From the IMG/VR virus record IMGVR_UViG_3300028887_000087: a stretch of 64,000 nucleotides of DNA; one strand, given 5' to 3'. Both the position numbers and the translations under genes were made by a program. This document shows positions 3,736-62,492 of the stretch, in pieces. The DNA is from a virus (taxonomy: Duplodnaviria; Heunggongvirae; Uroviricota; Caudoviricetes). Under the pieces are notes generated by a model. It saw nothing but the letters and a program-made list of their open reading frames with translations, was not told where the DNA came from and ran no database searches. Numbering within the stretch: position 1 is the first letter of the stretch; each line of letters starts with the position of its first letter.

Positions 3736-4071
3736 ATGATTAGTCAAGAATGCCGTGATGCAATAAAGGAAGCCTCAAAATTGTTGGAACCCTTTACAAA
3801 TTATAAGTTTATCGAAAAAGCGTTAACTGATATGAATAGTCCGATTTGGAGAGAAGATCGTAAGATAGCTTATAAAGCTTATGAGGCAAAAAGATTAAAG
3901 GCAGAAGAAGAACTTCTAACCGCACTTAAAGAAGGTAAAACCCTACAGTATTGTTATAGTAGGAATAGAGATAAGAATCCTCCTATATGGGATGACCTCC
4001 CAAAAGAAAAAGCTTATAATTTTATTGAACACGGTCAATGGGAATATATGAGAATAAAGGGTGACAGTTAA
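3736..4071 (+). CDS. hypothetical protein (111 aa)
   Basis: ATG 3736 after AGGGGG RBS. Confidence 0.5.
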   Translation: MISQECRDAIKEASKLLEPFTNYKFIEKALTDMNSPIWREDRKIAYKAYEAKRLKAEEELLTALKEGKTLQYCYSRNRDKNPPIWDDLPKEKAYNFIEHGQWEYMRIKGDS

Positions 4072-4074
4072 TAT
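4067..4074 (+). promoter_or_regulatory. class-2 TTAATAT -10-like box, 6 nt before ATG 4081 (leaderless candidate)
   Basis: gttaatat then aaaatt then ATG; no SD. Confidence 0.4.
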
Positions 4075-4080
4075 AAAATT

Positions 4081-4428
4081 ATGAAGTTATCAGATGTTTT
4101 AAGAAGAGATGCCAAAAAGATTGAATTCGTCTTAAAGGCTGTTTATAATGAAGGTTATAATGAAGGCCTTAAAGATGGCAGCAATCACGAATGGCATTAT
4201 GTATCGGAAAAAGATTATCCTCGCCCAGGTGAATTAGTTTTCTGTCACGGCACATTGACAACAACTTATGGCGGCAAGGCTATTTGTGAAAAGACTTTCA
4301 TTGGATATTACAAAGATGGCGGCTATGGTTGGTTTATCAAAAATGCAGTTGATGGAGAGCCTGACCAAAGTTGGCCTGTCGAAGAATGGAAATATCTTGA
4401 TAAGCCAGTAAAAAAGGTGGATGCGTAA
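4081..4428 (+). CDS. hypothetical protein (115 aa)
   Basis: ORF; no SD, TAATAT box upstream. Confidence 0.5.
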   Translation: MKLSDVLRRDAKKIEFVLKAVYNEGYNEGLKDGSNHEWHYVSEKDYPRPGELVFCHGTLTTTYGGKAICEKTFIGYYKDGGYGWFIKNAVDGEPDQSWPVEEWKYLDKPVKKVDA

Positions 4429-4616
4429 TGGGTGCATTAAATTGGAGACACATAACACTTTGTATTTATGATAGCGAAGGAACTCTTGTTGCTAAACTTT
4501 TTACAACACTGGGTTTACAGTACGAAGATAATATTGATAAGATTGCACAGGAAGCAAGAAACAACGGTTATACTGCAATCACATCAGTAAGAGATATGCT
4601 TCCTATGGGGTTATAA
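4428..4616 (+). CDS. hypothetical protein (62 aa)
   Basis: TAATG-coupled small ORF. Confidence 0.4.
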   Translation: MGALNWRHITLCIYDSEGTLVAKLFTTLGLQYEDNIDKIAQEARNNGYTAITSVRDMLPMGL

Positions 4617-5086
4617 TGTTGGATAGAATTGACCAAAATATTTTTCTTAAAAAGTTTCTTCTTGACTTTGTAAAGAAACACGGAGATGTCACTTGGTCGG
4701 GCAGAAGATATATTATCAACTCTGATGAGTCAGCATCACTTCTTGTTGATAAATTGATTGATGCGATGAAAGAAAATCCACAGTTCTTTACTTTTGTTGT
4801 TGAAGGCACAGGACCTATAGGTGAAGGTGAAATAAAGATACCTATAAAGAACGCTGCAAGTATTCTTCCAATGCTTTCTTACTTCAGAAATAAGAGACGT
4901 GAAATTGAGATGGAACAATTCTTTACACCTCAGGAATTAAAAGATTTAATCGGACTTCTTCAAACAAAATACAATGAACTTGACGAAAAAGAAAAAGAGG
5001 AAGAAGAAAGAAAGCGTCTTATATATCTTGAAAAGAAAGAGCGCGAAGAATACGAAAGACTTAAGAAAAAGTTTGGAGGTCAGTAA
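4616..5086 (+). CDS. hypothetical protein with K/E-rich C-terminal helix
   Basis: ATG overlaps upstream stop; charged coiled-coil-like tail. Confidence 0.5.
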   Translation: MLDRIDQNIFLKKFLLDFVKKHGDVTWSGRRYIINSDESASLLVDKLIDAMKENPQFFTFVVEGTGPIGEGEIKIPIKNAASILPMLSYFRNKRREIEMEQFFTPQELKDLIGLLQTKYNELDEKEKEEEERKRLIYLEKKEREEYERLKKKFGGQ

Positions 5087-5457
5087 TGAGAGACTATACA
5101 GAAGTAGCAAATAAATATGCAAAAGATACAGGAAGAACTGAGCCTGATTGGTTGAGAAAACAAGTAGTTCAAGATTTTACTGCAGGTGCCAATTTTGCAG
5201 ATAAAGCAAATGAAATGACTGGTTTGAAGGAGCAGACTTTTGCAATCGTATCTTCAAGAAACAATAAATTACTTTTCTGGGGCGGTTCAACAAAGCCCAA
5301 GTTTGACAGCTTTACTTCTGTAAAACTTTACAAAACTGAAACTCTTGCAAACAAAACGCTCGAAGACCGAAAAAGACGAATGGTTGACCCACTTTGGCGA
5401 ACAGCCTATGTTATGGAACTTAAAGTCGAATTCGGCAAAATTTGCACATCTAATTAA
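5086..5457 (+). CDS. hypothetical protein (123 aa)
   Basis: ATGA-type coupling with upstream gene. Confidence 0.5.
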   Translation: MRDYTEVANKYAKDTGRTEPDWLRKQVVQDFTAGANFADKANEMTGLKEQTFAIVSSRNNKLLFWGGSTKPKFDSFTSVKLYKTETLANKTLEDRKRRMVDPLWRTAYVMELKVEFGKICTSN

Positions 5458-5492
5458 ACTTTCTCTCCGTCCTCTTTATATTATTATTGTAA
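5452..5492 (+). promoter_or_regulatory. class-1 phage promoter-like bipartite motif
   Basis: attaaacttt...cctctttatattattattgtaa followed by AAAGGAGGA RBS and ATG 5509. Confidence 0.55.
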
Positions 5493-5833: not shown

Positions 5834-6070
5834 ATGGCAAAAAATCCAAACTTACCAAAAGCACCTGACCACGACATTCGTTGGGGTTGTTTACAACCTG
5901 CCTGTGAAGTTAAGTTCAGAGATTGGATAATCAGCCTCATCGAAGAAGCAATTAAAGACCCTACAAAAAGAGTTGATATTGCCTACACAATTTACGATGA
6001 GGTTCTTGACCTCGGTTATGATTATGGCAGAGATTCAGCTGCGGAAGATCGAGCTTGGGAAGAAGGTTAA
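5834..6070 (+). CDS. hypothetical protein (78 aa)
   Basis: Tightly coupled ORF. Confidence 0.45.
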   Translation: MAKNPNLPKAPDHDIRWGCLQPACEVKFRDWIISLIEEAIKDPTKRVDIAYTIYDEVLDLGYDYGRDSAAEDRAWEEG

Positions 6071-6073
6071 TAT
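6066..6073 (+). promoter_or_regulatory. class-2 TTAATAT box, 8 nt before ATG 6082 (leaderless candidate)
   Basis: ggttaatataaatcaatATG; no SD. Confidence 0.4.
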
Positions 6074-7862: not shown

Positions 7863-8462
7863 ATGATGGACCCTTTAAGCACAGCTTTAATGTTTGCATT
7901 TTTTACAATGTTTCTTTATTGGATTGCTCTTGGTGGACCTATCCCAAGATTTAGAGTTGTTAGGAAAAAGATTGACCTTTCAAAACTTTCTGATAAAGAA
8001 TTGCGTGCAACTGTTCCGTATGAAAAGTACTTCATTGTAAACACAACAATGGCTTGTGAAAGAATGCAAAAAGAGTTTAAGTCTTTGGTTGGTTTTTTCA
8101 AAGATGAATATAAAAATCTTGACTTAAGGTCACAATTTTTTCTTACTGCAATAATTAAAGCAGAAGACCTTGAAATTGATGCTCTTTTTGAAAAATGTAA
8201 GCACTATAATGAAAACTTAAAAGAAGTTGAAAAGTATTTGAAGGACCACACTTACAATCAAACAGTGATTGATCTTTTTCGTCCTAAGAGAAGTTATTAC
8301 CTTATAAAAGTTTTGCAGGCAACTCGCGATGCGATGAAGAATAAAGAACAAGTACCTCTTCCTGCACCCGTACTTGATAAAATAGGAGATGATCTTAATG
8401 AATGGTTTACAAAAGTTGAAGAAGCACCTAAAGATACTGCAGCAGTTAGCAAGAGCAAATAA
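7863..8462 (+). CDS. hypothetical protein with N-terminal TM helix (199 aa)
   Basis: GGAG RBS; hydrophobic N-terminus. Confidence 0.5.
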   Translation: MMDPLSTALMFAFFTMFLYWIALGGPIPRFRVVRKKIDLSKLSDKELRATVPYEKYFIVNTTMACERMQKEFKSLVGFFKDEYKNLDLRSQFFLTAIIKAEDLEIDALFEKCKHYNENLKEVEKYLKDHTYNQTVIDLFRPKRSYYLIKVLQATRDAMKNKEQVPLPAPVLDKIGDDLNEWFTKVEEAPKDTAAVSKSK

Positions 8463-8700
8463 CTGCGGCTTTTATTGCCCAAACTGTTCAATTGAAAGAC
8501 ACAATGCAACTGCAGGCGCAAATGCAGTTGAAGACGAATTGTATCATAAAACAAAATACTTTATCAGATGTAAGCGTTGCAATTTGACAACTCCTGCTTA
8601 TGAAACTGTAAAAGATGCAGCTGAGTCTTGGGAAAATGTTTGTGCATCTGTTGAAGATAAAATGTTAATATCAATTTATGAGCACAAAAAAGACAACTAA
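8398..8700 (+). CDS. putative zinc-ribbon protein (CPNCS...CKRCN)
   Basis: Two CxxC pairs; start uncertain (8389/8398), overlaps upstream gene. Confidence 0.4.
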   Translation: MNGLQKLKKHLKILQQLARANNCGFYCPNCSIERHNATAGANAVEDELYHKTKYFIRCKRCNLTTPAYETVKDAAESWENVCASVEDKMLISIYEHKKDN

Positions 8701-10238: not shown

Positions 10239-10268
10239 GGCGGGCTTCGGTCCGCCGTTAATATTTTA
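10239..10268 (+). terminator. Rho-independent terminator-like hairpin (GGCGGGC-TTCG-GTCCGCC)
   Basis: 7-bp GC stem, TTCG tetraloop, T-rich tail interrupted by TTAATAT box. Confidence 0.45.
10257..10264 (+). promoter_or_regulatory. class-2 TTAATAT box (with SD-containing leader to ATG 10283)
   Basis: gttaatattttaaatggaggttcactATG. Confidence 0.35.
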
Positions 10269-10571: not shown

Positions 10572-10754
10572 ATGCTTGAAAAAGAAGACTATGAAAATGA
10601 CAAACCTATAGAAGTTGCTTATGATGAATTTTCAAAAAAGTATAAGGAACTTTTTGATGTTGCAAACGCTGCAGTTATAAGGTTTGTATTTTCAGAAGGT
10701 TGGAAAGCACACAAGAATTATATTGATGTGTGTTATGGGGATGACGGCAAATAA
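10572..10754 (+). CDS. hypothetical protein (60 aa)
   Basis: ORF. Confidence 0.4.
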   Translation: MLEKEDYENDKPIEVAYDEFSKKYKELFDVANAAVIRFVFSEGWKAHKNYIDVCYGDDGK

Positions 10755-10978
10755 TGTATTTCGCAGTAATAGAAAAGAAAACAAGAACTCGTTTTTATTT
10801 TGCAGGATATGATACCTCGAAGAGAGGCTTGTGTCGTTGGTCTCAATCAAAACTTCAAGCAGTAAATCTGTCAGATGTTAATATAATTGAAAAATTGAGA
10901 AGATTCTTAGTACTTAATTCAATCTTCGACACAAACATCTACCGATTTGAGGCTATTGATGAGCAGCACATATATTAA
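10754..10978 (+). CDS. hypothetical protein (74 aa)
   Basis: TAATG coupling. Confidence 0.4.
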   Translation: MYFAVIEKKTRTRFYFAGYDTSKRGLCRWSQSKLQAVNLSDVNIIEKLRRFLVLNSIFDTNIYRFEAIDEQHIY

Positions 10979-13201: not shown

Positions 13202-16200
13202 TTGATGAATTTAGATAACTTTTTTGACGGTACCGCAACAGATTGGACATCCCTTACAGGTGCTATTAAACAGAAGAAGTCTGTAAACGAAAGCTTCTTC
13301 AAAAAGATGTACGATGCTGCTGGGAAGACACCTCGATACAACACAGTAAAAGATGCTTATGGAAATTATGTAAATGTTCCTATCTCTGATACAAATGGCA
13401 CAGGCGCAGTTGCAAACGGTAAAAACGAATGGACTTTATCTGAGTTTTTGAATTTGCAAAAAGCTGGCGAAGATAGTGCTGAACTTGCATCTTACCTTGA
13501 CCTCAAAGGTTGGACATTAAGATCACTTGGCGATGACGCAGGTGAAAAGCTCAACAATCAAATAAATACTCAAGCTGCTTTACAAGTTATTCAAAACTTT
13601 TATGATATGTACATATCTCCTGTAGGTGAAACTGATGCAAAGTATCGTCTTGGTGATGTCACAGGTAAAGCAAAGCCGGGGACTGTAAATAATCAGACTG
13701 ATGAGTTCGGCCGTTTAAGAACTCGTGCGCTTTTCAATTCAAAAGTTGATTATAAAGAATGGGAAGGAACTTCTCTTAAAGATAAGACAGAATATTATTC
13801 TGTTATTTGGTTCCCACCTTATTCTCCATTAAATATTAAGCCTACTTCTTGGAAAGGCATCAGTACAAAAAAGTATGATAAAGCCACAGGTCTTGAAGTT
13901 GATAACAACGGCTATCTTCTTGATGCAACAGGTCAGCGTATTAAGTACAGAGGCGAAGACGGTAAATTGTATTACAGAAAGTCACAAGGTGAAACTTCTT
14001 CTGTAAGTACAATGACAATGAAAGATTACCTTGCACAAGCAAAAGATAAAAGACAAAAAGAACTTGATGAAAAGAATCAAGAGTTGCGTGATGACGGAAA
14101 AGAGGTAACTGTTACAGAAGCTGAAGACACTCGCCTTGCAATCAAAAACGAAACAGACAAGTATTACGATACTTATGATATGGAAAGTGGTCTTGCTGCT
14201 CGTTCTTCATTTACATATCGTGCGCCTGGGTTTAAGGCAATCAATGACAATATCAATATGTTGCAGTGGGTTCTTGAAGGTATGTCAGGTATCGTTTCAA
14301 CATATCTTACAGAGTGGGACCTTTCAATATATCTTCAGGAAGGTTTAGTGACTAATACTGAAAGCACTTTGCCTAACATTATTATGTTGACACACCGCTT
14401 GGATAAGGACAATCCTAATCAATACGGATGGAAAGATTCAGAAGGAAATCCTGATGACCGTGCTGCATCTTGGGGTGTTATCAACTGTGCCATTTCAAAA
14501 ATATACGGTGACAATCATAAGTCTTGGATAATCAACGCCTATCCTTATGCACAATGGCATACACTTTATCCCGACCCAACTGCAATGTCAGGTTGGCTTG
14601 ATAAGATTACTGCTGCTGATGGTACAACTGCTTATGTACCAAACTATTATAGAATTGCAAAGGCAGGCTTACGCAATTACTTGGAAGGAAAAGATAATCA
14701 CGGAAGAGTAAGAGGCGATTCAGTTCAGAACAGATTGATGTTCCAAGATTTTGAAGGTGCTGCTCTTTCAGGTTATAAAGAATGGAATTACGGCAACAAA
14801 ATTTGGAAAGCATTGTACACGTCTGCTGACGATGGCTTCTCTGATGTTGATATTCTTTTCTTGCAGACTGCAATCGGTCTTTATCACAAAAGAGATTTAA
14901 TTGAAGATGTTCAGATAATCAATTACCAAGTAGGTGGAAACGGTGAGCCTTATGATGGCTATGATATGATTGTCGGTGGTAACGATGCTTCAGGTAATGG
15001 TCAGAACACAGGTTATTCTTTCAATGACCCAGAAGAAGGTTCGGGTGGTAATAAGTACTGCCCAGGCTCAGTTTTCAAAGGTGCGTTGACATTCTTAAAT
15101 ATGTTCAATAAGAGAGACTCGTCAAAAGAGTCAGCACTTTCAAGAGCAGGCGCAAACGGTGACGGAAGCGTAAGTGAAAACAAAAATGTATATGGTACCA
15201 TTCAGGATTCTCTTGGTGCAACAAAAGCTGCGAGCTCAAACAATGCTATTGATGAAGGTGCTGAACACGCATACTTGTTAGGTACTGATAAAGGTCTTAC
15301 AGATAATTCAAACGGTGTTGGTGTACCTCAGTATAACCCAACACTTTATGGTGGACCTCACTCTTATTACCGTTCACCAAAATCATATCAATCTTACTAT
15401 CAGGAAAACAATATCTTCTTAAGAAATGTTCCTCGTATTGATAAGTGTCCTGACAGCTTTGACCACGATGCAGATAATGGTATTACTTGGCCATCACTTC
15501 CAAACTGGCAGGATAACTATTATTACAAAGGAAACGAAAAATGGTGTTCAAATGTTTCAGCTGTTGTAAACGGTGAAAGACAAGCTTATGAGCAATCTTG
15601 GTCTGCAGGTCTTGCAAGACTTAAAAAAGGACATCATAGTACAGGTGAAGTTCCTGCATATCTTCGTGTAAAAGTTTACAGTGATGTTGAGTTCTATGCA
15701 CAGCTTCAGTGGCACTGGGGTTGGAATTATTGGCACTGGGGTTGGTGGGAATGGAGATGGACTCGTCCAACACATTTCTCAAACGGTGAGCCTTATCATT
15801 ACGAAGGTTATGGTTGGTGGCAATGGTTCCACAAAGACCTCGGCTTGACTTCAAGTTGGTGGTGGTACGGTTGTTGGAATCACGGTTGGTACGATTACTA
15901 TTGGAATAGATATTATAATTACTCTTGGTATTACCGTTGGGAATGGACAGGCAACTGGTGGGGTTGGCGTTTGTCTGTTGCTTATTATGCGCCTTGTCAA
16001 AGAGCTTGGCATTATGAATGGAAATTTACAACATTCAAAAGATATGTACTCCATTCAGAGCCAAATGCGCCTTGGAGAATTGTTCAAACAAGACATTACG
16101 AATCTTATTTGCCAAACAACTCAAGCAGCGTATTTAAGAACGCTTGGAATAATTCTTATAGGGCATTATTCGGCTATTCAAGAGATTATGCGTACCTCTT

Positions 16201-48303: not shown

Positions 48304-48322
48304 ATAACATCACTGATGTTAT
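48304..48322 (+). repeat. 19-nt perfect palindrome ATAACATCA-C-TGATGTTAT
   Basis: seen directly; intergenic, followed by TTTTG. Confidence 0.4.
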
Positions 48323-48353
48323 TTTGAAGGTTTAAATGTTATGGAGGTACAAT

Positions 48354-49992: not shown

Positions 49993-49995
49993 AAA

Positions 49996-51078: not shown

Positions 51079-51104
51079 TCAAAACCCTTTTATATTATAA
51101 ACAA
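51067..51104 (+). promoter_or_regulatory. class-1 phage promoter-like bipartite motif
   Basis: aataaacttt-N12-tttatattataaacaaATG. Confidence 0.45.
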
Positions 51105-51701: not shown

Positions 51702-51717
51702 TTGGAGGTTCACTTAT

Positions 51718-53025
51718 ATGTGGTTAATCAATGGTAAATTGACTGATGATGAAAATGTCGTAATGGTGGCTTTTGACTTGAAATACCCGCCTATGGTAAA
51801 ATCACCGCTTGATACTGACCAGTACAAAAAGTCTATGAAACAGACTTATCTGCATCAGTTTAGCGATGCCCACGCAACTTGGGATTTCAAAGCCCGCAAT
51901 GTTGGTGATGGAACAAAACACGAAAAGTATACGGAAGAAGACCGTATTGAAATTAAGAAACAGATTATGGCTTACTGTGCTCTTGTTTACACAGAAGCAG
52001 AACTTGCCTTCCTTGGTGACCCAGTAAAACGTCCTTGGATTCATAACAACTTCATTGAAGTTGAACGCGATTGGCGTCCTCATCTTGAAGACTTTGAAGT
52101 TCTTGAAGATGAAAAGACAGGCCTTGCAATTCACACAAAAGGCGTTCAGTGGAAAATTTCTGATTACGAAATTCCTGTTCTTGAAATTGCTGCAGAAACA
52201 TATTACCGCAATCACTACGATTACGAACAGCTTGTAAAAGACTTCAAGGAAAAAACACTTGAAAAGATTGATTATATCAAGCGCGGCATTTTCCGCCCAG
52301 GTGCTTTCTCTGAGTTTGGTGCTCGTCGTCGTGTAAGTTTTGAACTTCAGGATTGGTTGGTAAAGACTCTTGTTGAAGCTGCAAAGGACCCAGACTTTGC
52401 AAAAAATGCAAAGTTTGTCGGAACTTCAAATATGTTCCTTGCTATGAAGTATGGAATTATGTCAGTAGGTACAATGGCTCACGAGTTTATTATGACTGTG
52501 GGACAGGGTTATCTCAAACACAATCCTGCATTCAGCAATTGGTACGCTCTTGATGCTTGGGTAAAAGAATACGGTACAATGAACGGTATCGCTCTTACAG
52601 ATACAATCGGAACTGATGTGTTCCTCCGCGACTTCAAGAAAACATTTGCAACAGTGTTCAGCGGCGTTCGTCACGACAGTGGTGACCCATACGCTTGGGG
52701 TGATAAAATCATTGCACATTACAAGAGCTTGGGTATTGACCCTATGACAAAAACTTTGATGTTCAGTGATGGTTTGAACTTGAAGAAAGCAACAGAACTT
52801 AACGAATACTTCAAAGGTAAAGCTCAGGTTGCGTTCGGTATCGGAACAGACTGGAGCGGTCCTCAGGGAATTGATGCTTTGAACATCGTATGTAAGGTTG
52901 CAATTGTAAACGGCCTTGATGTTGCAAAACTCAGTGATGCTGAAGGCAAGAATATGTGCCGCAATCCTGCAGCAATCGAACATCTTAAGAATGAGATTGC
53001 TTGGAGAATGGCAACTGACAAATAA
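51718..53025 (+). CDS. nicotinate (or nicotinamide) phosphoribosyltransferase, NAPRT/NAMPT family (PncB-like)
   Basis: FGARRRVS, GTSNMFLA, VGTMAHEF, VRHDSGDP, VAFGIGT family motifs; GGAGG RBS before ATG 51718. Confidence 0.7.
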   Translation: MWLINGKLTDDENVVMVAFDLKYPPMVKSPLDTDQYKKSMKQTYLHQFSDAHATWDFKARNVGDGTKHEKYTEEDRIEIKKQIMAYCALVYTEAELAFLGDPVKRPWIHNNFIEVERDWRPHLEDFEVLEDEKTGLAIHTKGVQWKISDYEIPVLEIAAETYYRNHYDYEQLVKDFKEKTLEKIDYIKRGIFRPGAFSEFGARRRVSFELQDWLVKTLVEAAKDPDFAKNAKFVGTSNMFLAMKYGIMSVGTMAHEFIMTVGQGYLKHNPAFSNWYALDAWVKEYGTMNGIALTDTIGTDVFLRDFKKTFATVFSGVRHDSGDPYAWGDKIIAHYKSLGIDPMTKTLMFSDGLNLKKATELNEYFKGKAQVAFGIGTDWSGPQGIDALNIVCKVAIVNGLDVAKLSDAEGKNMCRNPAAIEHLKNEIAWRMATDK

Positions 53026-54047: not shown

Positions 54048-54065
54048 CTTTATATTATTTTTGTA
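54030..54065 (+). promoter_or_regulatory. class-1 phage promoter-like motif (variant)
   Basis: gaactttt-N12-tttatattatttttgtATG. Confidence 0.4.
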
Positions 54066-55483: not shown

Positions 55484-56062
55484 ATGGCAAGAATTGGTAT
55501 TTTTGGTGGCACATTTGACCCGTTCACTCCTGGGCACGCCGCAGTTTCTACAAAAGCTTTCGAACAGCTTAATCTTGATAAGTTGATTATCGTACCTACG
55601 ACAGTCAACTACTACCGTTCCGATAAGCGCTATCTTTTCACTTACGATGAAAAGCTCAAAATTATTCGGGACTTTATGACTGGGTTCAAATACCCAACCG
55701 AAATCGACACAATCGAGCAGGACAAAGATGGCTCTTGGAGAACAATTGATTTGGTTCAGTATTTCCGTCAGAAGTTCCCAAAAGATAAGTTGATTTTGAT
55801 TATTGGTGAAGACTCTTACAACGAGTTCAGAACTTGGACACGCTGGAGAGAAATCCTTGAATATGTTGAACTTGCAGTTGCAAATCGTTGTCAGAAATCA
55901 AACGAATGGAAGCCACAGGAAGAAGTACCTGCTCTCCCAATCAATATGGGAGACCGCTTCGAAGATTGTTCTGCAACAGTTGTAAGAAACAAACTTATTG
56001 AAGAAGTAATGGACTTGTACTTATCTGATAAAGATTGGTACGCTAATCTTGGAGGGCTTTAA
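55484..56062 (+). CDS. nadD: nicotinate/nicotinamide mononucleotide adenylyltransferase (NadD-like)
   Basis: GIFGGTFDPFTPGH (HxGH NT motif), ISAT-like C-terminal motif; AAGGAG RBS. Confidence 0.8.
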   Translation: MARIGIFGGTFDPFTPGHAAVSTKAFEQLNLDKLIIVPTTVNYYRSDKRYLFTYDEKLKIIRDFMTGFKYPTEIDTIEQDKDGSWRTIDLVQYFRQKFPKDKLILIIGEDSYNEFRTWTRWREILEYVELAVANRCQKSNEWKPQEEVPALPINMGDRFEDCSATVVRNKLIEEVMDLYLSDKDWYANLGGL

Positions 56063-57165: not shown

Positions 57166-60039
57166 ATGGGTTCAAAAAATTCTTGGCGCTTGCAGTTCAT
57201 TGATATTGATAGTTCATTCACAATCAATACTGAAGCAAGCACAATCAAGGGCTATATGGTTGTAAGAGCTCCTAAGGGTGAAAAGAATCCTTATTATTTT
57301 GAAAAAGGTAATATGGAAGCTATTTACGCTATGGTTGGTGTTCCTACATCAAATTGGCCTGACCTTTATGAGGCAGAAGCTTTCAACCAAGAGTACGGTT
57401 TGTACATCTCTGCTCCTGCAGGTTCTTCAGCTTCATATCCTTCATACTTCGGCGGTTCTTACATCACAAGTAAAGGTCTTATCGACTTCTACAATGTCAC
57501 AGGTAAGGACGTAGTTGACTATACACAAATGGTTCAGGTTGGCTTTGAAAACGCTCAAGGCTACAGAGATTCAAATGTAAACATTATCGTTAACCCAGAA
57601 GGCGTTGGCGGTGAATCAGGTTATCCTACAGGTGCACTTCCTGACGGAACAAAAGACAACCTCGCAGTTTACATCACAGGTATTACTGCAAAAGTTTGGG
57701 CAAATGTTCAGGAAATTGGTCTCAACTATTGGGGAGACGAAAAGTCAGGATTTGAGGAAGGTGTTTACTACTACTCTGTAAACAAAACTGACCACAAACT
57801 TTATGTTGAAAACGCAGACGGAGACGTCGTAACAGACTTCTATTGTGGTGTTTGGTGGAAGGCAGAAGATGGTACATATTCTGTAATGATTGGTGGTAAT
57901 TCTTGGGTTATCAACAACTCATCATTCAAGACAGGACAGGCAACTGCTCTCAATACTCTTGCAGAACTTGGTATCACAGCAACTTCTACAAACGATTACA
58001 ACAATTCAGACGCTCCACTTTTGACTTTGACAGACCTCTTGCCAAATGTTGAATTGGCTTGTGCAATGCAGTCTTCAAAATACTCTTGGAATAATGTTGT
58101 TGCTTACCTCGAAGATGGCAACTCATTCGGTGCTGCAGGTGCTGCAGTTGACCCTAACTTCCTTGGTGTTGAAATTATCGTAGATAGCGAACAGGGCAAG
58201 ACAATGTATGAGACAACTTCTACATACGTTTCTCCAAAGAACCGCTATCAGGGTATTACTTGGTTGCTCAACGTAAAGGCTGATACATACGGATATATCG
58301 TTCAGAAGTCTCCTGCTGAGGTGACAACTGAAGTTACTATTACAGGCATCGGTTATGATAAATGGAAGTACGATTTCGCGGCTCCTCTTATCATTGGTGA
58401 CCTTAAGAAAATTGACCGTTCAGTTCTTGACAATTTGAACTACAACAATGACGACAACTTGTTCTTGAACATTGAAGGTTCTTACTCAAGCAACGCTCTT
58501 ATCGTTCCAGAAAAAGCTGCTGCTGCAAAGAAAATCAAGTTGTATTCTTACAACCCAGATTTGGATAAGACAAAGTATCCTACAGCTGCTAAGGCTTCTG
58601 CAAATGTTGGTGAGTCTTACTTGACACAGTCAATCTTGATTTACGGTGTAAAGGTTTTGAACAACAACGCTGAAACAGCAACTCAGCTTGATGACAACAC
58701 AACAACACTTCAGATTGACCACGAAATCGTTTACGTTGTATCTCCTTCAAACTTCCAGTTTGAAGCAGAGGATGATAAGAATTATCCATTGGTTAAGGAC
58801 ATCAACTTCAACACAATGACATTCAACGTAAAAGAGGAAGTTTACCCAGGTGAAATGATGAGCGGTGGTGAGTTCACTGGTTCGTTCGATGAAAAGGGTA
58901 AAGACGGATTTGGTGCAAACATTTATTGGCCAAACGTACTCAACGATGACGATATGTCATTCATTGAAATCCATCCTGACAAGACTTTTGACGAAGATCT
59001 TGACTCACACGGTATTTATACAAAGAAACGTATCGTTGATGACAAATTGACATACGATGCAGAAGGAAACATTGTTCCTGTGACATACAAACTCAAGCTC
59101 AAAGGTCAGCGTTATGCTACTTATGCAGTTGAGAAAAACCTTGCTGAAGGAACAGTTGGTGGTTCTTGGCGCGATGAGTTTATGATGATTGTTAAGCAGG
59201 GTTGGACTGAAGCATTCGATGCTCAGTACGACGACGTATATGTATTTATGGATCCTACAGGACAGGAATTCGTACATACACAGCACGCTTCACTTGTTGA
59301 AACACACAAGCTTGCAATGGCAATTTCACCTAAGCTTATTACTCAGGGTGAGTTCGCAAATCCTTCAAAACTCACTGTTACTGGTCGTTCTAAACAAACT
59401 GCTCAGTATGCAGGTGAATTCCAGTTCTACGATGCTTACACAGGTAAGTCATTCTGGATGATGCCTATTGGTGATGTTGGTTTGATGTACTGCCGTATCA
59501 TCGAAAAGAAGATGGGTGGTTGGGCTCCTGCTTGGTACAATTACAACAATATGGGTGGTCAGTTGCCTCGTGCAATTCTCAAAGCTCGTTGGAACTTCTC
59601 TGACTCAGCAACAAAGATTATGGATGAAAAGGGTATCAACCCAATCGTTTATAACGCTGATGATGGTTTGATGTGTGTATCATCAAAGACAACTCAGGAC
59701 CCTAACAACGTCACAGACTGGTCTGAAGTAGGTCACGTACTTGCATTCTTGCTCTGTAAGCGTGAAATCCGCGACAACGTAATGCGTCAGCAGATTAAGA
59801 AACCTATTGATGATTACTGGATGGGTGTTCGTCAGGAACAGGTTGAGGCAATCCTCGCAAAGAGAACTGTTGGTTCAAACAAGATTTGGGCAAAAGCAGT
59901 TTGCGATATTGCAGGTGTAAACAACGATACAACAAAAGCTATGAAGAAGTTCTACATTTACGTTAAAGTAAAGGTAAACGTATTCTCAGAATATGTTGTA
60001 CTCGTATTCGAGAACGTTGGGCAGACAACTAACATATAA
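57166..60039 (+). CDS. 957-aa protein, probable major virion structural (capsid-like) protein
   Basis: Own leader with hairpin + strong RBS, strong terminator downstream; composition typical of highly expressed structural protein; no motif match. Confidence 0.55.
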   Translation: MGSKNSWRLQFIDIDSSFTINTEASTIKGYMVVRAPKGEKNPYYFEKGNMEAIYAMVGVPTSNWPDLYEAEAFNQEYGLYISAPAGSSASYPSYFGGSYITSKGLIDFYNVTGKDVVDYTQMVQVGFENAQGYRDSNVNIIVNPEGVGGESGYPTGALPDGTKDNLAVYITGITAKVWANVQEIGLNYWGDEKSGFEEGVYYYSVNKTDHKLYVENADGDVVTDFYCGVWWKAEDGTYSVMIGGNSWVINNSSFKTGQATALNTLAELGITATSTNDYNNSDAPLLTLTDLLPNVELACAMQSSKYSWNNVVAYLEDGNSFGAAGAAVDPNFLGVEIIVDSEQGKTMYETTSTYVSPKNRYQGITWLLNVKADTYGYIVQKSPAEVTTEVTITGIGYDKWKYDFAAPLIIGDLKKIDRSVLDNLNYNNDDNLFLNIEGSYSSNALIVPEKAAAAKKIKLYSYNPDLDKTKYPTAAKASANVGESYLTQSILIYGVKVLNNNAETATQLDDNTTTLQIDHEIVYVVSPSNFQFEAEDDKNYPLVKDINFNTMTFNVKEEVYPGEMMSGGEFTGSFDEKGKDGFGANIYWPNVLNDDDMSFIEIHPDKTFDEDLDSHGIYTKKRIVDDKLTYDAEGNIVPVTYKLKLKGQRYATYAVEKNLAEGTVGGSWRDEFMMIVKQGWTEAFDAQYDDVYVFMDPTGQEFVHTQHASLVETHKLAMAISPKLITQGEFANPSKLTVTGRSKQTAQYAGEFQFYDAYTGKSFWMMPIGDVGLMYCRIIEKKMGGWAPAWYNYNNMGGQLPRAILKARWNFSDSATKIMDEKGINPIVYNADDGLMCVSSKTTQDPNNVTDWSEVGHVLAFLLCKREIRDNVMRQQIKKPIDDYWMGVRQEQVEAILAKRTVGSNKIWAKAVCDIAGVNNDTTKAMKKFYIYVKVKVNVFSEYVVLVFENVGQTTNI

Positions 60040-60060
60040 GTTGATTTGATATAAATGCAA

Positions 60061-60084
60061 AGGTGGACGCAAGTCCACCTTTTT
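60061..60084 (+). terminator. Rho-independent terminator (AGGTGGAC-GCAA-GTCCACCT + T4)
   Basis: perfect 8-bp stem, GCAA loop, TTTT. Confidence 0.8.
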
Positions 60085-60108
60085 ATTACTTAGGTAAACT
60101 AAATATAT

Positions 60109-60522
60109 ATGAAAGAAGAATTATTTGAAAGTATCTTAAAAGAGGCTGACGGTTTTACAATCGGAAACACAACTGTTTTACCAACGCCTGAGCCTTCTTC
60201 ATCACAGGCTAAATTATCATACACAAGACCTAACGTTGATGCAAAGCACGGCTATTATGCAATCATCAAATATATTGTAGAACACCCATTCTGCAAGAGA
60301 CGTGAAATTTTAGATAATCTTTGGCACGAGTATGTTTCTCGTGGTCAGTGGAGTTCAGTATTCAAAGCTTTGCATTACGATGGTTTCTTCCGTATTACAA
60401 ATAAGTGGGAATACATCCCAACAGGAAAGGCTGTTGACTTTATTGCAAAACACGAAGGAAGAGAGATTATAAATCCTTCTGAAGAAGAGATTGAAGATCA
60501 CGAAGCAGACGAGGAAGAATAA
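60109..60522 (+). CDS. hypothetical protein (137 aa)
   Basis: ORF. Confidence 0.45.
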   Translation: MKEELFESILKEADGFTIGNTTVLPTPEPSSSQAKLSYTRPNVDAKHGYYAIIKYIVEHPFCKRREILDNLWHEYVSRGQWSSVFKALHYDGFFRITNKWEYIPTGKAVDFIAKHEGREIINPSEEEIEDHEADEEE

Positions 60523-61769
60523 TGGGAAAGATAGCGGTTCTTGCTTGGGGAAGAATGAATCCTCCAACAATTGGACATCTTAAGTTAGTTGACACTGTAA
60601 AAGATTTGGCAATTGACAATAACGGTGAGCCTTTTGTTTACTTATCTCATTCTGTCGATAAAAAAGGTGAAAACAAAAATCCTCTCCCATACGAATTGAA
60701 AATCAAATATGCACAAAAAGCTTTCGGTGATTGTGTAAAAGCATCAGACGCAAAAACTGTTATCTTTGCTCTTCACGAGATATACGAACAAGGCTTTACT
60801 GATTTGATTTATGTTGGCGGAGAAGATCGTATTGGCGGTGATGGCGACATTACTGAAATGATTGAAAAGTATAATGGATTTGAAGCAAAGAACCCTGCGA
60901 TGTATTACAAGTTTGACACAATCAGATTTGAAAGCGCAGGTGCTCGTGACGACAATTCTGAAGATTTGACAACAAAGGCTTCTGCATCTTATGTACGCAA
61001 ACTTGTTCTTGAAGGCGACCACGAAATGTTTTTGAAAATGGTTCCTCTTGAGAATGATGATGCTGAAGATATGTGGGAAGACTTGAGAAGTATTATGGTA
61101 AGCAAAGAAGCAATGTTTGAAAGTCTTCTTAACCCTAAACTTCAGGAAAGTGTTGACCCAGTAGTTGCAGTTTCTGCAACAGCTTATATTGGCTTAATGG
61201 CAGCTGCACTTGTTGGTTTCGGTCGTTCAGTTTATCAATACCTTAGAGAGCCTATTGATGAAGCTGAAAAAAGTGGAGATGTTGAAGTTGTTAAAACAGA
61301 CTCTTTACTTACAAAGGCAAAAGCGTATCTTAAAGATCTTAAGGACAACTTTTTGAATAATGATGAGTTCAAATTGACCGAAGAGGAAATTGCTCAGCTT
61401 GATAAAATTATCGGTGAAGTTGTTGAAAGTAAATATGTAAATGGCAAAGTTTCTCTTGGTACACTTACTTGGGGTGTACTTGCAAGATTGAAAAGAGAAT
61501 GCCCAGAAGTATTCAATAAGATGAATGATAAGGCTCGTAACAGAATAAGTTTTGAACATCAAGATGATTTCTTCGATTATGTTTACGATAAAACAGATCG
61601 TGCACATAGTGAGAAGTTCCCAAAGTATCATCCATTGTCAGATTCACCAAATGCTAAACGAGCATATTACAATAAACAGTTTAAAGATGAATATGGTATC
61701 AAAAGCTTAGCAGCTCAACACCATAACAGAGATATAGGTCGTAACATAAAAGGGGATATAAATGCTTAA
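60522..61769 (+). CDS. nucleotidyltransferase-superfamily protein (HxGH-type, NadM/cytidylyltransferase-like N-domain) + unknown C-terminal domain
   Basis: VLAWGRMNPPTIGHLKLV (cf. GRFQPFHKGH), SASYVRKL (cf. ISSTxIR); ATGA coupling. Confidence 0.45.
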   Translation: MGKIAVLAWGRMNPPTIGHLKLVDTVKDLAIDNNGEPFVYLSHSVDKKGENKNPLPYELKIKYAQKAFGDCVKASDAKTVIFALHEIYEQGFTDLIYVGGEDRIGGDGDITEMIEKYNGFEAKNPAMYYKFDTIRFESAGARDDNSEDLTTKASASYVRKLVLEGDHEMFLKMVPLENDDAEDMWEDLRSIMVSKEAMFESLLNPKLQESVDPVVAVSATAYIGLMAAALVGFGRSVYQYLREPIDEAEKSGDVEVVKTDSLLTKAKAYLKDLKDNFLNNDEFKLTEEEIAQLDKIIGEVVESKYVNGKVSLGTLTWGVLARLKRECPEVFNKMNDKARNRISFEHQDDFFDYVYDKTDRAHSEKFPKYHPLSDSPNAKRAYYNKQFKDEYGIKSLAAQHHNRDIGRNIKGDINA

Positions 61770-62073
61770 GAATTATTTCAATGATGATAAATTGTTTGAG
61801 TCAGTTTACAACGAAGGCAAATGCGGTGCTCCTAGCGGACACTGTGGCGCAGACAAATTGACTTGCGGTGGCGGTGGTGGCTGCGGATTCAAGGAATCAG
61901 TAATGAAAGAATCAAATGATTATTCTTCTGACTCATACGCAATTGGTGGCTGCGGTGCACTCGGATATGTTAACTATTGTAAAGTAGGTAGGTTTGTTGT
62001 TGTAAAAAGCCGCTTACACGGAGAAGTTATTGGTGAACTTCTTGGTTATGTTCCTAAGGACATTGATGACTAG
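61762..62073 (+). CDS. Cys/Gly-rich small protein, tandem duplicate A
   Basis: MLKNYFNDDKLFESVY...CGGGGGCGFKES...LLGYVPKDIDD. Confidence 0.45.
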   Translation: MLKNYFNDDKLFESVYNEGKCGAPSGHCGADKLTCGGGGGCGFKESVMKESNDYSSDSYAIGGCGALGYVNYCKVGRFVVVKSRLHGEVIGELLGYVPKDIDD

Positions 62074-62082
62074 GAGATAAGA

Positions 62083-62436
62083 ATGCTTAAGAATTATTTT
62101 AATGACGACAAACTTTTTGAGTCAGTATACAAAATGAATGAAGATTGTGGTGGTAATAGCGGTTGCGGAAGATCAGAAGAAAACAACAGCAGCTGCGGTG
62201 GTTCAGGTTGTGGATTCAGGGAATCAATAAAGCTTCACGAATGCGGAAGTAGTGGCTATAGTTATTCAGGTTCATCTTGCGGCGGTTCAGGATATTCTTC
62301 TTCAGGCTGTGGTGGCTGGTCTAGTCATTCTTCTTCACACTCTTGTGAAATTGGAAGAAGAGTTAGGATTATTATAGATGGTAGTTGTGGTGGATTAACT
62401 GAAGTTGGGCGCCTTTTAGGATATGCTGACGACTAA
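62083..62436 (+). CDS. Cys/Gly/Ser-rich small protein, tandem duplicate B
   Basis: Same N-terminus (MLKNYFNDDKLFESVY), CGGSGCGFRES, LLGYADD. Confidence 0.45.
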   Translation: MLKNYFNDDKLFESVYKMNEDCGGNSGCGRSEENNSSCGGSGCGFRESIKLHECGSSGYSYSGSSCGGSGYSSSGCGGWSSHSSSHSCEIGRRVRIIIDGSCGGLTEVGRLLGYADD

Positions 62437-62456
62437 TAATTAAAGTTGACTTTTTC

Positions 62457-62484
62457 AGGACAGGTTTACGCCTGTCCTTTTTTT
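62457..62484 (+). terminator. Rho-independent terminator (AGGACAGG-TTTACG-CCTGTCCT + T7)
   Basis: perfect 8-bp stem then TTTTTTT. Confidence 0.8.
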
Positions 62485-62492
62485 GTTAATAT
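62485..62492 (+). promoter_or_regulatory. class-2 TGTTAATAT box 6 nt before ATG 62499 (leaderless candidate)
   Basis: tttgttaatatacctatATG; no SD. Confidence 0.4.

Follow-up and report, generated by a model that had tools for sequence, protein, structure and literature searches.

The octamer GTTAATAT, which recurs along a 64,000-nt stretch of DNA of a large uncultivated phage (hereafter, the window), is probably the core of a −35-independent promoter of the −10 type, with a predicted transcription start about 7 nt downstream of the box that would yield leaderless or minimal-leader mRNAs. Two kinds of elements are found at this distance. In seven genes of the window, including one for a DinG-type helicase, the start would fall on the A of ATG, always preceded by T, giving an mRNA that is leaderless or has a 2-nt leader and is translated without a Shine–Dalgarno (SD) sequence; in three genes, it would coincide with the beginning of a GGAGG-type SD, leaving a minimal leader of 10–15 nt. 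Such a promoter would be used by this lineage of large phages. The promoter action on DNA, the exact start site, and the leaderless translation are what we infer from sequence and conservation; leaderless and minimal-leader expression as such is already known.

Box copies in the window

Exact matches to GTTAATAT occur 15 times on the plus strand of the window and never on the minus strand, all of them on the coding strand, whereas dinucleotide shuffles give a chance expectation of 3.1 ± 1.7 (15 copies were reached in 0 out of 100 shuffles) and a third-order Markov model gives 1.1; this is the top over-represented 8-mer of the plus strand. The ten coordinates listed in the initial annotation are all exact plus-strand copies, but five further ones (8664, 10877, 31087, 34900, 47539) had been omitted (Table 1). 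The motif comprises the hexamer TAATAT, matching TATAAT at only four out of six positions, and invariant G and T at positions −14 and −13. The extended form TGnTAATAT, noted earlier as frequent, is indeed seen as TGTTAATAT in eight out of 15 copies; the TG dinucleotide is present in only half of them. None of the 34 one-mismatch variants of the octamer lies at a gene junction, and no conserved −35 element was found upstream of the boxes.

Several copies stand apart. Those at 10877, 31087, and 34900 are intragenic, with no obvious target. The copy at 20070, previously listed together with the start-adjacent ones, is followed by a class-1 promoter rather than by a start codon, the two forming a tandem upstream of the SD-led ATG 20156. 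The copy at 47539 was rejected as a genuine box, being in reality GGAGG-N5-ATG: the octamer letters decay in two relatives (TTCCTAT in L022, TTAGTAT in L023), while GGAGG and ATG are kept. Distant homologues of the surrounding gene have 232 aa, fitting this core of the gene, and a GGAGG-TTAAT-ATG look-alike is also present at another gene in L022.

Table 1. Boxes and adjoining elements in the window. Spacer, number of nucleotides between the box and the ATG; L001–L023, related phage sequences.
Feature	Position	Strand	Context	Relatives
Class-1 −10 box TTATATTAT	1956-1964	+	SD-less ATG 1973, spacer 8	
GTTAATAT box	4067-4074	+	TAA 4069-4071 is stop of gene 3736-4071; SD-less ATG 4081, spacer 6; 115 aa	Box and spacer identical in L006, upstream sequence unalignable
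GTTAATAT box	6066-6073	+	TAA is stop of gene 5834-6070; SD-less ATG 6082, spacer 8; 402 aa, homologues full length	Box and spacer identical in L006; orthologous protein 58% identical
GTTAATAT box	8664-8671	+	Within 3' end of gene 8398-8700; SD-less ATG 8678, spacer 6; 77 aa	Box and spacer identical in L006, coding sequence diverged; orthologue of 8678 gene independently called
Terminator-type hairpin	10239-10256	+	Directly 5' of box 10257	Compensatory stem change and T5 tract in L006
GTTAATAT box	10257-10264	+	GGAGG from 8 nt past box; ATG 10283 at 18 nt; minimal-leader type	Conserved in L006
GTTAATAT copy	10877-10884	+	Within ORF 10754-10978; may be internal promoter or chance occurrence	No covering relative
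GTTAATAT box	20070-20077	+	Abuts −35-like element AAATTAAACTT of class-1 promoter at 20078; TTATATTA at 20103	Conserved in L001–L003
GTTAATAT box	21209-21216	+	In 98-nt intergenic gap; SD-less ATG 21225, spacer 8; 543-aa DinG/XPD-type helicase	Kept in L001–L003; flanks and spacer altered
TAAACT hexamer (TAnnnT-type box)	22854-22859	+	SD-less ATG 22868, spacer 8	
GTTAATAT box	30345-30352	+	TAA is stop of gene 29786-30349; SD-less ATG 30359, spacer 6; 271 aa	No covering relative
GTTAATAT copy	31087-31094	+	Within gene 30359-31174, 101 nt 5' of SD-led SPFH/flotillin gene (ATG 31196); may be long-leader promoter or chance occurrence	No covering relative
Intrinsic terminator	32856-32873	+	7-bp GC stem, then T6; directly 5' of box 32880	
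GTTAATAT box	32880-32887	+	After terminator; SD AGAGG from 8 nt, GAGG core 9 nt; ATG 32905 at 17 nt	Conserved in L001
GTTAATAT copy	34900-34907	+	Within ORF 34639-35091	No covering relative
GTTAATAT box	44581-44588	+	TAA is stop of gene 44211-44585; SD AAGGAG ~9 nt past box; ATG 44610 at 21 nt; metallophosphoesterase	Conserved in L022 (distance 21) and L023 (distance 20)
GTTAATAT box	47261-47268	+	TAA is stop of NAD synthase gene 46420-47265; SD-less ATG 47275, spacer 6; 335 aa, homologues at 70-83% identity full length	Kept with distance 6 in L022 (spacer aatttt) and L023
Look-alike, not a box	47539-47546	+	GGAGG-TTAAT-ATG; SD and in-frame ATG 47545 inside gene 47275-48282	Octamer letters decay
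Class-1 −10 box	51090-51098	+	SD-less ATG 51105, spacer 6	Identical in L022, L023
Class-1 −10 box	54050-54058	+	SD-less ATG 54065, spacer 6	Geometry kept in L023; longer SD-bearing leader instead in L022
TAAACT hexamer	60095-60100	+	12 nt past terminator 60059-60082; SD-less ATG 60109, spacer 8	
Intrinsic terminator	62457-62478	+	9-bp stem, then T6; directly 5' of box 62485	Kept in L017, L018, L019
GTTAATAT box	62485-62492	+	After terminator; SD-less ATG 62499, spacer 6; 61 aa	Box and ATG kept in L017, L018, L019; spacers include acctat, acttat (L017), aataaagt (L018), actaat (L019), T at −1 kept

Distance to the start codon and SD sequences

Seven copies of GTTAATAT have a gene-opening, SD-less ATG exactly 6 or 8 nt downstream (6, 6, 6, 6, 6, 8, and 8 nt), and in three genes with an SD the distances are 17, 18, and 21 nt, so that the distribution is bimodal. 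An ATG that opens an ORF is expected at 6–8 nt with a background probability of 2.2%, and its presence at seven out of 15 boxes is highly significant (P = 1.5e-8). All six cases described earlier (genes at 4081, 6082, 21225, 30359, 47275, and 62499, with spacers 6, 8, 8, 6, 6, and 6 nt, respectively) hold, and a seventh had been overlooked, namely, the box at 8664 with the ATG at 8678 (spacer 6). The association of boxes with start codons is real and stronger than first reported. As for the helicase gene at 21225, it does encode DinG-type helicase domains, with the N-terminus co-linear with that of gp73 of phage G.

The absence of an SD in these genes is also borne out: the predicted energies of the anti-SD duplex range from +1.0 to −3.8 kcal/mol (the remaining 85 genes have a median of −7.3), and seven out of seven box-proximal genes, versus 21 out of 85 others, lack an SD (Fisher P = 1.4e-4), while about two thirds of genes have strong GGAGG SDs. 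The start codon is ATG in all seven, with A at +1 throughout, and T precedes it in seven out of seven, versus 30 out of 85 others (P = 0.001). Transcription start sites usually prefer a pyrimidine at −1 and a purine at +1, and the T−1/A+1 pair at the box-proximal starts agrees with this preference. Over the first 40 nt, these genes have less mRNA structure than the others do (−0.9 vs. −2.6 kcal/mol, P = 0.005). In nine out of nine SD-led cases, the SD core starts 6–11 nt past the box, that is, at the predicted +1.

Since the box contains TAA, the upstream gene often ends within it; this is so in four out of seven SD-less genes, with the stop 9–11 nt upstream of the ATG, and the entire stop–promoter–start junction then spans only 14–16 nt. 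The three terminators said to precede boxes indeed directly adjoin those at 10257, 32880, and 62485. The gene at 62499 is the cleanest leaderless candidate.

Conservation in related phages

Comparison with relatives at 82–96% local nucleotide identity shows purifying selection both on the box and on the spacer length. In the junction boxes, 0 out of 96 positions are substituted, compared with 13.4% divergence of the flanks (P ~ 1e-6); the spacer letters drift, while the length stays at 6–8 nt and T at −1 is kept. The same rule is obeyed in held-out sequence and in relatives on contigs of 259–301 kb, box-to-ATG distances in held-out or related sequence being 6, 6, 6, 6, and 8 nt without an SD and 16–32 nt with an SD. 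Boxes directly after terminators are also found in four relatives (L017, L018, L019, L024). In distant relatives (34–39% protein identity), TTAATAT occurs in 7–9 copies on the coding strand versus 2–3 expected, both after terminators and upstream of genes.

The leaderless-type geometry is not restricted to GTTAATAT: class-1 and TAAACT boxes show it too (Table 1), and it is seen at about 12 out of 92 genes.

Alternative explanations

The assignment of the box to a promoter −10 element, made initially, gains indirect support from its strand specificity, its location at junctions or after terminators, its invariance against diverging flanks, and the SD-less ATG or SD at about +7. Some of these features, namely, the strict strand specificity and the fixed short distance to the SD or ATG, would also be expected of an element acting in RNA, be it an enhancer of translation initiation, a stand-in for the SD, or a site where an endonuclease cuts polycistronic transcripts just 5' of the SD or ATG; such cleavage at the box would likewise yield leaderless or short-leader mRNAs, and a beta-CASP ribonuclease-like protein is among the products of the genome. 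However, many boxes directly follow strong terminators, where little read-through RNA is expected, the element is −10-like (T−12, A−11, T−7) with a +1 that fits the start-site rules, the box is not complementary to the 3' tail of 16S rRNA, and it has no match in Rfam, all of which makes action at the RNA level improbable.

The stop codon inside the box means that SD-less translation could also be explained by termination–reinitiation from the upstream cistron on a polycistronic mRNA, in which case the mRNAs would not be leaderless, the box would be a promoter or some other signal, and its proximity to the ATG would be a by-product of genome compaction. Other SD-less genes of the window are, in fact, overlapping coupled starts of the ATGA/TAATG type. 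Still, such coupling is impossible at 21225, given the 98-nt gap, at 62499, which follows a terminator, and at 8678, where the box is out of frame within the upstream gene, as well as in held-out post-terminator cases (L018 9060, L019 5611); it predicts neither the restriction of spacers to 6 or 8 nt and their absence from the 9–15 nt range nor the invariant T at −1, and other short-gap junctions in the genome carry an SD. We consider it quite improbable.

There is only a slim chance that the box is an operator or activator site of a phage regulator, or some other DNA signal not recognized by a polymerase as −10. Sigma-70 promoters are less typically invariant over a full 8 bp than are the sites of sequence-specific proteins, and no cognate sigma was found in the ~84 kb searched; on the other hand, the box is asymmetric with no dyad partner, its position relative to whichever element is transcribed or translated first is fixed, and behind terminators it has no further promoter-like element close by. 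Moreover, phage promoters that consist of an invariant −10 element only are well established, e.g., T4 late TATAAATA. Finally, a compositional artefact of AT-rich junctions (the window has a GC content of 0.37, and its junctions often contain TAA stops) is effectively refuted by the shuffles, the 15:0 strand split, the lack of one-mismatch variants at junctions and of substitutions, and the held-out replication.

Polymerase reading the box

If GTTAATAT is a promoter, the suggestion that it is likely read by the host sigma-70 is not supported, given 15 out of 15 exact copies, 0 out of 34 one-mismatch variants at junctions, the invariant T−13, and TG present in only half of the copies: such rigidity is not typical of a degenerate class read by sigma-70 and rather resembles a dedicated specificity. 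By rough estimate, the host core carrying a sigma that the phage encodes or remodels is a tentative candidate for the reader, the unmodified host primary sigma seems doubtful, and a phage RNA polymerase is somewhat less plausible still; no phage sigma or RNA polymerase gene was found in ~84 kb of this genome. The host may be Firmicute-like, as suggested by the heavy use of GGAGG and the best match of the helicase to Bacillus phage G.

Comparison with known systems

T4-type late promoters, read by gp55 with gp33 and the sliding clamp, have a nearly invariant 8-bp element in the −10 region and no −35, and define a phage-specific transcription class. The box described here is similar in being a near-invariant 8-bp element that would work without a −35; however, its sequence is different, T4 late mRNAs have SD-bearing leaders, and no gp55 or gp33 homologue was detected in the ~84 kb scanned. 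A classic leaderless phage transcript is the lambda cI mRNA from PRM, which starts at the A of AUG and is translated without an SD. The predicted start is the same here, but PRM is a regulated sigma-70 promoter of a single regulatory gene, whereas here an invariant box is reiterated for many genes.

Thermus phages phiYS40 and P23-45 have middle and late promoters of the −10 or extended −10 type that need no −35 (PMC7403470), and most middle and late mRNAs of phiYS40 are leaderless and dependent on leaderless translation by the host (PMC3594737). Here, −35-free phage promoters of the −10 type and leaderless mRNAs are likewise predicted. Among the differences, the Thermus host naturally has many leaderless genes, compared with strong GGAGG SDs on about two thirds of genes here, the motif is GTTAATAT, in which TG is seen in only half of the copies, the leaderless type accounts for only about two thirds of junction boxes, the others having minimal SD leaders, and a sigma-remodelling factor similar to gp39 or gp76 was not identified here.

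In Deinococcus, leaderless genes are marked by a −10 motif 6–7 bp upstream of the ORF (PMC12340547); more generally, leaderless genes of Deinococcus-Thermus and Actinobacteria, as modelled by GeneMarkS-2, have TAnnnT 6–7 bp 5' of the start and no SD, with the transcript predicted to begin at AUG (PMC12340547, PMC3160421, PMC6028130). An adjacent −10-type hexamer and an SD-less start are common to these genes and ours, but there the boxes are degenerate host sigma-A −10 elements spread across cellular genomes, whereas here the box is a rigid phage 8-mer with invariant −14 and −13 positions, found alongside two other box types.

Early promoters of the virion RNA polymerase of jumbo phages AR9 and phiKZ (AAATATATATTAT-6N-G+1) are AT-rich, with the start fixed 6 nt downstream, and are highly sensitive to single changes; the AR9 5' UTRs are 26–491 nt long, hence its transcripts are not leaderless (PMC5312081). 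GTTAATAT matches neither the AR9 nor the phiKZ consensus, and no beta/beta'-like RNA polymerase genes were found here. The AT-rich invariant element is nevertheless a common feature, the class-1 box of this phage has the TATATTAT core in common, and relatives of this phage are found on contigs of 189–301 kb.

Occurrence and Rigidity of the Box

The invariant 8-mer GTTAATAT (the box), which contains TTAATAT and has the core hexamer TAATAT, occurs 15 times on the + strand of the window and not once on the other strand. Dinucleotide shuffles yield an expectation of 3.1 ± 1.7, and 15 copies were reached in 0 of 100 shuffles; with an expectation of 1.1 under a third-order Markov model, the box is the most over-represented + strand 8-mer. 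The initial annotation, which proposed leaderless mRNAs read by host sigma-70, listed ten copies, all at correct coordinates; the five copies absent from its list are marked in the table.

G-14 is present in all 15 copies and T-13 is invariant; T-15 is found in eight, which read TGTTAATAT. Of the 34 one-mismatch variants, not one occupies a comparable position at a gene junction, and thus the box is a rigid element and not a degenerate consensus. No conserved -35 element was found in the 60 nt upstream of the copies, and in three of them the -35 region is filled by terminator hairpins; the three terminators noted earlier are indeed there and directly adjoin boxes. No Rfam family was found in the window, and a literature search on the motif itself returned nothing relevant.

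Coordinates of promoter-like elements, gene starts and other features (boxes are named by their first base; boxes and the genes following them are on the + strand; distance, from the end of the box to the ATG)
Feature	Position	ATG	Distance (nt)	Remarks
Box, SD-less start	4067	4081	6	TAA of box is upstream stop
Box, SD-less start	6066	6082	8	TAA of box is upstream stop
Box, SD-less start	8664	8678	6	Not listed initially
Box, SD-less start	21209	21225	8	
Box, SD-less start	30345	30359	6	TAA of box is upstream stop
Box, SD-less start	47261	47275	6	TAA of box is upstream stop
Box, SD-less start	62485	62499	6	
Box, SD-led start	10257	10283	18	
Box, SD-led start	32880	32905	17	
Box, SD-led start	44581	44610	21	TAA of box is upstream stop
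Box, tandem with class 1	20070	20156		SD-led
Box, SD look-alike	47539	47545		Not listed initially
Box within ORF	10877			Not listed initially
Box within ORF	31087			Not listed initially
Box within ORF	34900			Not listed initially
Class-1 TTATATTA cores	1956, 5476, 20103, 28922, 29275, 35110, 38907, 43076, 51090, 54050			
Class-1 copies with SD-less ATG		1973, 51105, 54065	6-8, from TATTAT	
Third motif TAAACTAAAT	22854-22859, 60095-60100	22868, 60109	8	SD-less
Third motif TAAACTAAAT	19112-19117	19143		SD-led
ACTAAT upstream of SD-less genes		11679, 56308, 62694		Related to TAAACTAAAT
Start after terminator hairpin	40422-40459	40457	9, from hairpin	cttttatat-ATG
NAD+ salvage/synthesis set	45191-53025, 55484-56062 / 60522-61769			Syntenic in L022 and L023
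NAD synthase; NAPRTase	46420-47265; 51718-53025			
GGDEF (GGEEF) diguanylate cyclase; CCA-adding enzyme; SPFH/flotillin protein; FtsH-like AAA ATPase	37894-38898; 38936-40417; 31196-32830; 36164-37888			Unusual phage cargo
Adenylosuccinate-synthetase-like protein	49996-51078			Divergent
Beta-CASP ribonuclease-like protein	62962-64000			ORF runs past window end
Very large ORFs	13205-19114; 57166-60039; 23815-26619; 26682-28754			1969, 957, 934 and 690 aa

Distance Between the Box and Gene Starts

Eleven copies lie at gene boundaries (junction boxes): seven show leaderless geometry, three are followed by minimal SD leaders, and one forms a tandem with a class-1 promoter, the second promoter-like element of the window. 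In the leaderless class, an ATG without Shine–Dalgarno (SD) sequence follows the box after 6 nt (five genes) or 8 nt (two genes); no box-to-ATG distance of 9–16 nt occurs in the window. All six genes initially assigned this geometry retain it, but the list was incomplete, gene 8678 being the seventh. The background probability of a gene-opening ATG at 6–8 nt is 2.2%, so that the observed seven out of 15 boxes correspond to P = 1.5e-8.

All seven box-proximal genes lack an SD, which is true of 21 out of the remaining 85 genes (Fisher P = 1.4e-4), and their anti-SD duplex energies range from +1.0 to -3.8 kcal/mol versus a median of -7.3 elsewhere. All seven start with ATG, each ORF opens merely 3–9 nt upstream, and homologues support the N-termini of genes 6082, 21225, and 47275. 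An SD-weighted heuristic for gene starts displaced five of these seven starts and four other SD-less ones. In five copies, the upstream gene ends with the TAA within the box; stop-codon read-through at this in-frame TAA was considered and rejected, since the shared frame is an automatic result of the 6-nt distance plus compaction.

Predicted Transcription Start

Counted from the end of the box, the A of an SD-less ATG is nucleotide 7 in five genes and nucleotide 9 in two. It is preceded by T in seven out of seven window cases and in all held-out cases, compared with 30 out of 85 other genes (P = 0.001). Bacterial RNA polymerase prefers a pyrimidine at -1 and a purine at +1, and the T-1/A+1 of the SD-less starts matches this preference. 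In all nine SD-led cases the SD core starts 6–11 nt past the box, and hence the leader would be as short as possible with an SD inside. Three independent features thus converge on a predicted start approximately 7 nt past the box. The first 40 nt of these SD-less genes are less structured than those of the other genes (mean -0.9 vs. -2.6 kcal/mol, P = 0.005), and this low 5′ structure, together with the exclusive use of ATG, fits the requirements of 5′-terminal initiation.

Conservation in Related Contigs

The comparison was made with loci of related contigs (L001–L024). In L006 (approximately 80% nucleotide identity, syntenic with window 3.5–10.3 kb) all four boxes are kept, with the same spacer lengths as in the window (6, 8, 6, and 18 nt). 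Box 4067 is retained there despite an unalignable end of the upstream gene, boxes 6066 and 8664 are retained though the downstream coding sequence diverges at once, and the hairpin preceding 10257 carries a compensatory stem change. When counted over ten junction boxes, each covered by at least one relative at 82–96% local identity, substitutions affect 0 of 96 box positions, whereas the 60-nt flanks differ by 13.4% (P~1e-6).

The out-of-sample set comprised 20 kb past the window end (L015, L017, L024) and intermediate relatives (L018, L019, L022, L023). These loci have two to six boxes each on the coding strand versus 0.1–0.45 expected, and zero or one on the other strand. SD-less ATGs again lie 6 or 8 nt past the box (L015 19349, L019 9996, L022 1105), including cases after terminators (L018 9060, L019 5611), and SD-led genes start 16–32 nt past it. 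Orthologues of gene 62499 retain terminator, box, and ATG with differing spacers (acctat, acttat, aataaagt, actaat), all of which still measure 6 or 8 nt and have T at -1.

In distant relatives (L004, L008, L010; 34–39% protein identity), the G of the box is absent. TTAATAT occurs there in seven to nine coding-strand copies versus two to three expected, with zero to two on the other strand, often after terminators and 20–37 nt upstream of SD-led genes; in a few cases it precedes, by 7–8 nt, an SD-less start that had been called independently (L004 2946, L010 3244). In distant relatives, the orthologue of gene 6082 is headed either by an SD-containing leader together with a box-like element or by an SD only; the putative promoter position is hence older than the leaderless arrangement. 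No box enrichment was found in Bacillus phage G.

Copies Away From Simple Junctions

Copy 20070 adjoins the -35-like part of a class-1 promoter, a position that is conserved; hence the two form a tandem arrangement upstream of an SD-led ATG. Copy 47539 has the form GGAGG-TTAAT-ATG, that is, an SD and an in-frame ATG. Two diverged relatives have altered box letters at this site (TTCCTAT, TTAGTAT) with GGAGG and ATG kept, and an unrelated gene start in L022 shows the same look-alike; thus, at this copy an SD, a spacer, and a start codon merely happen to spell the box, which makes it a natural negative control. This GGAGG-N5-ATG (47539–47547) is a conserved internal in-frame site of gene 47275–48282. 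Distant homologues of the encoded protein have only 232 aa, corresponding to the part downstream of the site. The gene may produce long and short isoforms, or an N-terminal extension of 90 aa may have been acquired in this lineage.

The three copies inside ORFs are in regions without a covering relative, and since one to three chance copies are expected, some of them may be fortuitous; alternatively, copy 31087 could serve the SPFH gene 101 nt downstream.

Other Elements With the Same Geometry

Class 1 has the form AAATTAAACTTT-N13-TTTATATTAT and ten copies in the window. It is best read as a putative promoter in which a 17-nt spacer separates a -35-like TTAAAC from TATATT and a conserved G follows 7 nt downstream. 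These elements are mostly upstream of strong GGAGG leaders and are kept at orthologous sites in L022 and L023. Three copies are followed by an SD-less ATG; at one of them, the 54065 junction, the leaderless geometry is seen in the window and L023, and an SD-bearing leader in L022. The third recurring hexamer, TAAACT, also forms part of the class-1 -35-like element; it precedes two SD-less ATGs, one of them (60109) just past a terminator, and another copy lies upstream of an SD-led gene. Sequences with the related ACTAAT occur upstream of three further SD-less genes.

Overall, approximately 12 of 92 genes have a -10-like box and then an SD-less ATG 6–8 nt on, so that this geometry is not unique to GTTAATAT; the remaining SD-less genes mostly have overlapping, coupled starts. 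Gene 40457 begins 9 nt after a strong terminator hairpin, its sole SD-like sequence is inside the hairpin stem, and no box lies at the canonical distance.

Possible Function of the Box

From these sequence data we favor, with moderate confidence, a reading of the box as a -35-independent promoter whose start site would be set on the start codon or the SD. The fixed box distance agrees with action at the RNA level, the box being a translational enhancer or a processing site; such a role fits poorly with boxes that immediately follow strong terminators and with the resemblance to -10 elements and start sites. Termination–reinitiation could account for four of the seven SD-less genes, but it explains neither genes 21225, 62499, and 8678 nor the post-terminator cases in relatives, and it predicts neither the 6/8-nt quantisation nor the T at -1. 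A chance origin of the pattern is excluded.

Candidate Factors Recognizing the Box

The core TAATAT agrees with TATAAT at four out of six positions. The box resembles extended -10 (TGn) sigma-70 promoters in having T-12, A-11, T-7, and a G at -14 and in lacking a -35 element. However, T-15 is present in about half of the copies, T-13 is invariant, and the 8-mer shows no variation; in TTAATAT boxes of distant relatives, the G is not conserved. This rigidity makes the host primary sigma (sigma-70), proposed initially as the likely reader, a conceivable but less probable one. The box does not fit the Bacteroidetes-type TAnnTTTG promoter, and a sigma-D/sigma-28-type -10 element was rejected as well, there being no TAAA at the required -35 position.

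In its half-present T-15, invariant T-13, and lack of variation, the box more closely recalls phage-specific classes with a -10 element only, among them T4 late promoters. The latter have the consensus TATAAATA at -13 to -6 and involve the phage-encoded gp55 sigma and the gp33 co-activator. The likeness is one of architecture alone, an invariant 8-mer without -35 element, the T4 consensus being different from GTTAATAT; neither a gp55-like sigma nor a gp33 co-activator was detected by Pfam, PHROGs, and NCBIfam in the window and approximately 20 kb beyond.

No sigma factor or RNA polymerase (RNAP) domains were found by Pfam, PHROGs, and NCBIfam in approximately 92 window proteins, or by Pfam in 27 proteins from approximately 20 kb past the window end; no recognisable gp39/gp76-type (sigma-4-remodelling) proteins were found either. 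The 1969-, 957-, 934-, and 690-aa proteins have no RNAP match in Pfam/PHROG, nor do the 1969-, 957-, and 690-aa proteins in PDB sequence searches. Phage G encodes a sigma factor, gp69, four genes ahead of its homologous helicase; a tblastn search of the window and all loci compared gave no homologue of gp69. The one weak hit (E = 0.22) was rejected, as the ORF proved to be a metallophosphoesterase.

It is conceivable, though rather improbable, that the box is read by a phage-specified factor without detectable sigma or RNAP homology, and that leaderless and minimal-leader mRNAs form a separate translational channel in an otherwise strongly SD-dependent (Firmicute-like) host. By analogy with what has been proposed for phiYS40, such a channel could switch expression in time, in conjunction with manipulated initiation factors or ribosomes. 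On this reading, a gene at a stop–promoter–start junction would not be expressed from polycistronic read-through RNA but solely from a leaderless transcript of its own.

Comparison With Known Systems

In Deinococcus-Thermus and other phyla, a -10 motif 6–7 bp upstream of the ORF is generally accepted as marking leaderless genes (PMC12340547, PMC3160421); GeneMarkS-2 models this motif (PMC6028130). Here, a TAnnnT hexamer (TAATAT) likewise ends 6 or 8 nt before the ATG, also in held-out relatives, with ATG starts and no SD. Among phages, most middle and late mRNAs of phiYS40 are leaderless (PMC3594737), and P23-45 has middle and late promoters of the extended -10 class (PMC7403470); the -35-less architecture is common to these promoters and the box, the leaderless geometry being seen here at seven of 11 junction boxes.

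AR9 early promoters have an invariant AT-rich AAATATATATTAT, a start 6 nt downstream, and leaders of 26–491 nt (PMC5312081). The box-to-start geometry is compatible with AR9/phiKZ multisubunit-RNAP promoters, but the sequence match to AAATATATATTAT is limited to the class-1 box, whose TATATTAT core matches the mapped AR9 virion-RNAP early promoter (PMC5312081), and GTTAATAT does not match.

As judged from the sequences, the motif, the uncultivated large-phage lineage, and the setting in a genome otherwise dependent on strong SDs are new here, and the apparent dual use of the predicted +1 for ATG or SD stands out against known systems. If confirmed, the box, 6–8 nt, and ATG or SD would constitute a compact predictive grammar for uncultivated phages of 189–301 kb, correcting gene starts misplaced by SD-based callers and delimiting transcription units; it would also provide a minimal 8-bp portable promoter plus leaderless cassette, and extend programmed leaderless expression in phages past Thermus systems to a strong-SD genome. 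A concrete question would then be which factor recognizes so rigid a -10-only element.

Genome Setting and Gene Content

The window is compact (GC 0.37), with essentially all genes on the + strand. Copies 96–99% identical to its sequence were found on IMG/VR viral contigs of 58–189 kb, and relatives with approximately 70–80% protein identity on contigs of 259 and 301 kb; none reaching upstream of the window start was found. Megablast of 24 kb of the window against 50,697 phage records gave no nucleotide match. Approximately two-thirds of genes have a strong GGAGG-type SD (median anti-SD duplex energy -7.3 kcal/mol), and hence initiation in the host is SD-dependent; the host may plausibly be a Firmicute. 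The Pfam match to crAss001_48 was rejected as a lineage marker, since a single 79-aa protein does not define a lineage.

Encoded functions include a DinG/XPD-type helicase, DNA methyltransferases, ThyX, a CCA-adding enzyme, an NAD-salvage cluster, an SPFH/flotillin protein, and BspA-type LRR proteins. Among characterised homologues of the helicase, Bacillus phage G gp73 comes closest (42% identity over 98% of its length). The NAD+ set also comprises an isochorismatase/nicotinamidase, NMN/NaMN adenylyltransferase-like cytidylyltransferases, and NUDIX. Among the cargo unusual in phages, the CCA-adding enzyme is encoded although no tRNA genes were found in the 64-kb window. The 1969- and 957-aa proteins had no match in Pfam, PHROGs, PDB, or 50,697 phage genomes (tblastn), and the 934- and 690-aa proteins showed LRR repeats or a tendon-like repeat only.

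The adenylosuccinate-synthetase-like protein matches PHROG 1211 (“2-aminooxy adenylosuccinate synthetase,” PurZ-like) at 2.5e-28 but PurA structures only weakly, and it is at most a candidate PurZ (2-aminoadenine DNA); were it genuine, 2-aminoadenine might be present in the phage DNA, which would change every A in the boxes. The beta-CASP metallo-beta-lactamase ribonuclease-like protein, whose L015 homologue has approximately 469 aa, matches the “type VII CRISPR-associated Cas14” model of NCBIfam at 3e-94 and aCPSF1 at 2e-75.

In L001 (9986–16377, 96% identical), the helicase box and the 32880 box are approximately 6.4 kb apart versus 11.7 kb in the window, approximately 5 kb (the LRR-protein and SPFH region with boxes 30345 and 31087) being absent or replaced. 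In L004 (7082–8440, 12213–14351) and L008 (5262–6683, 19513–20709), TnpB/IS605-family genes and a LAGLIDADG homing endonuclease are inserted among syntenic genes.
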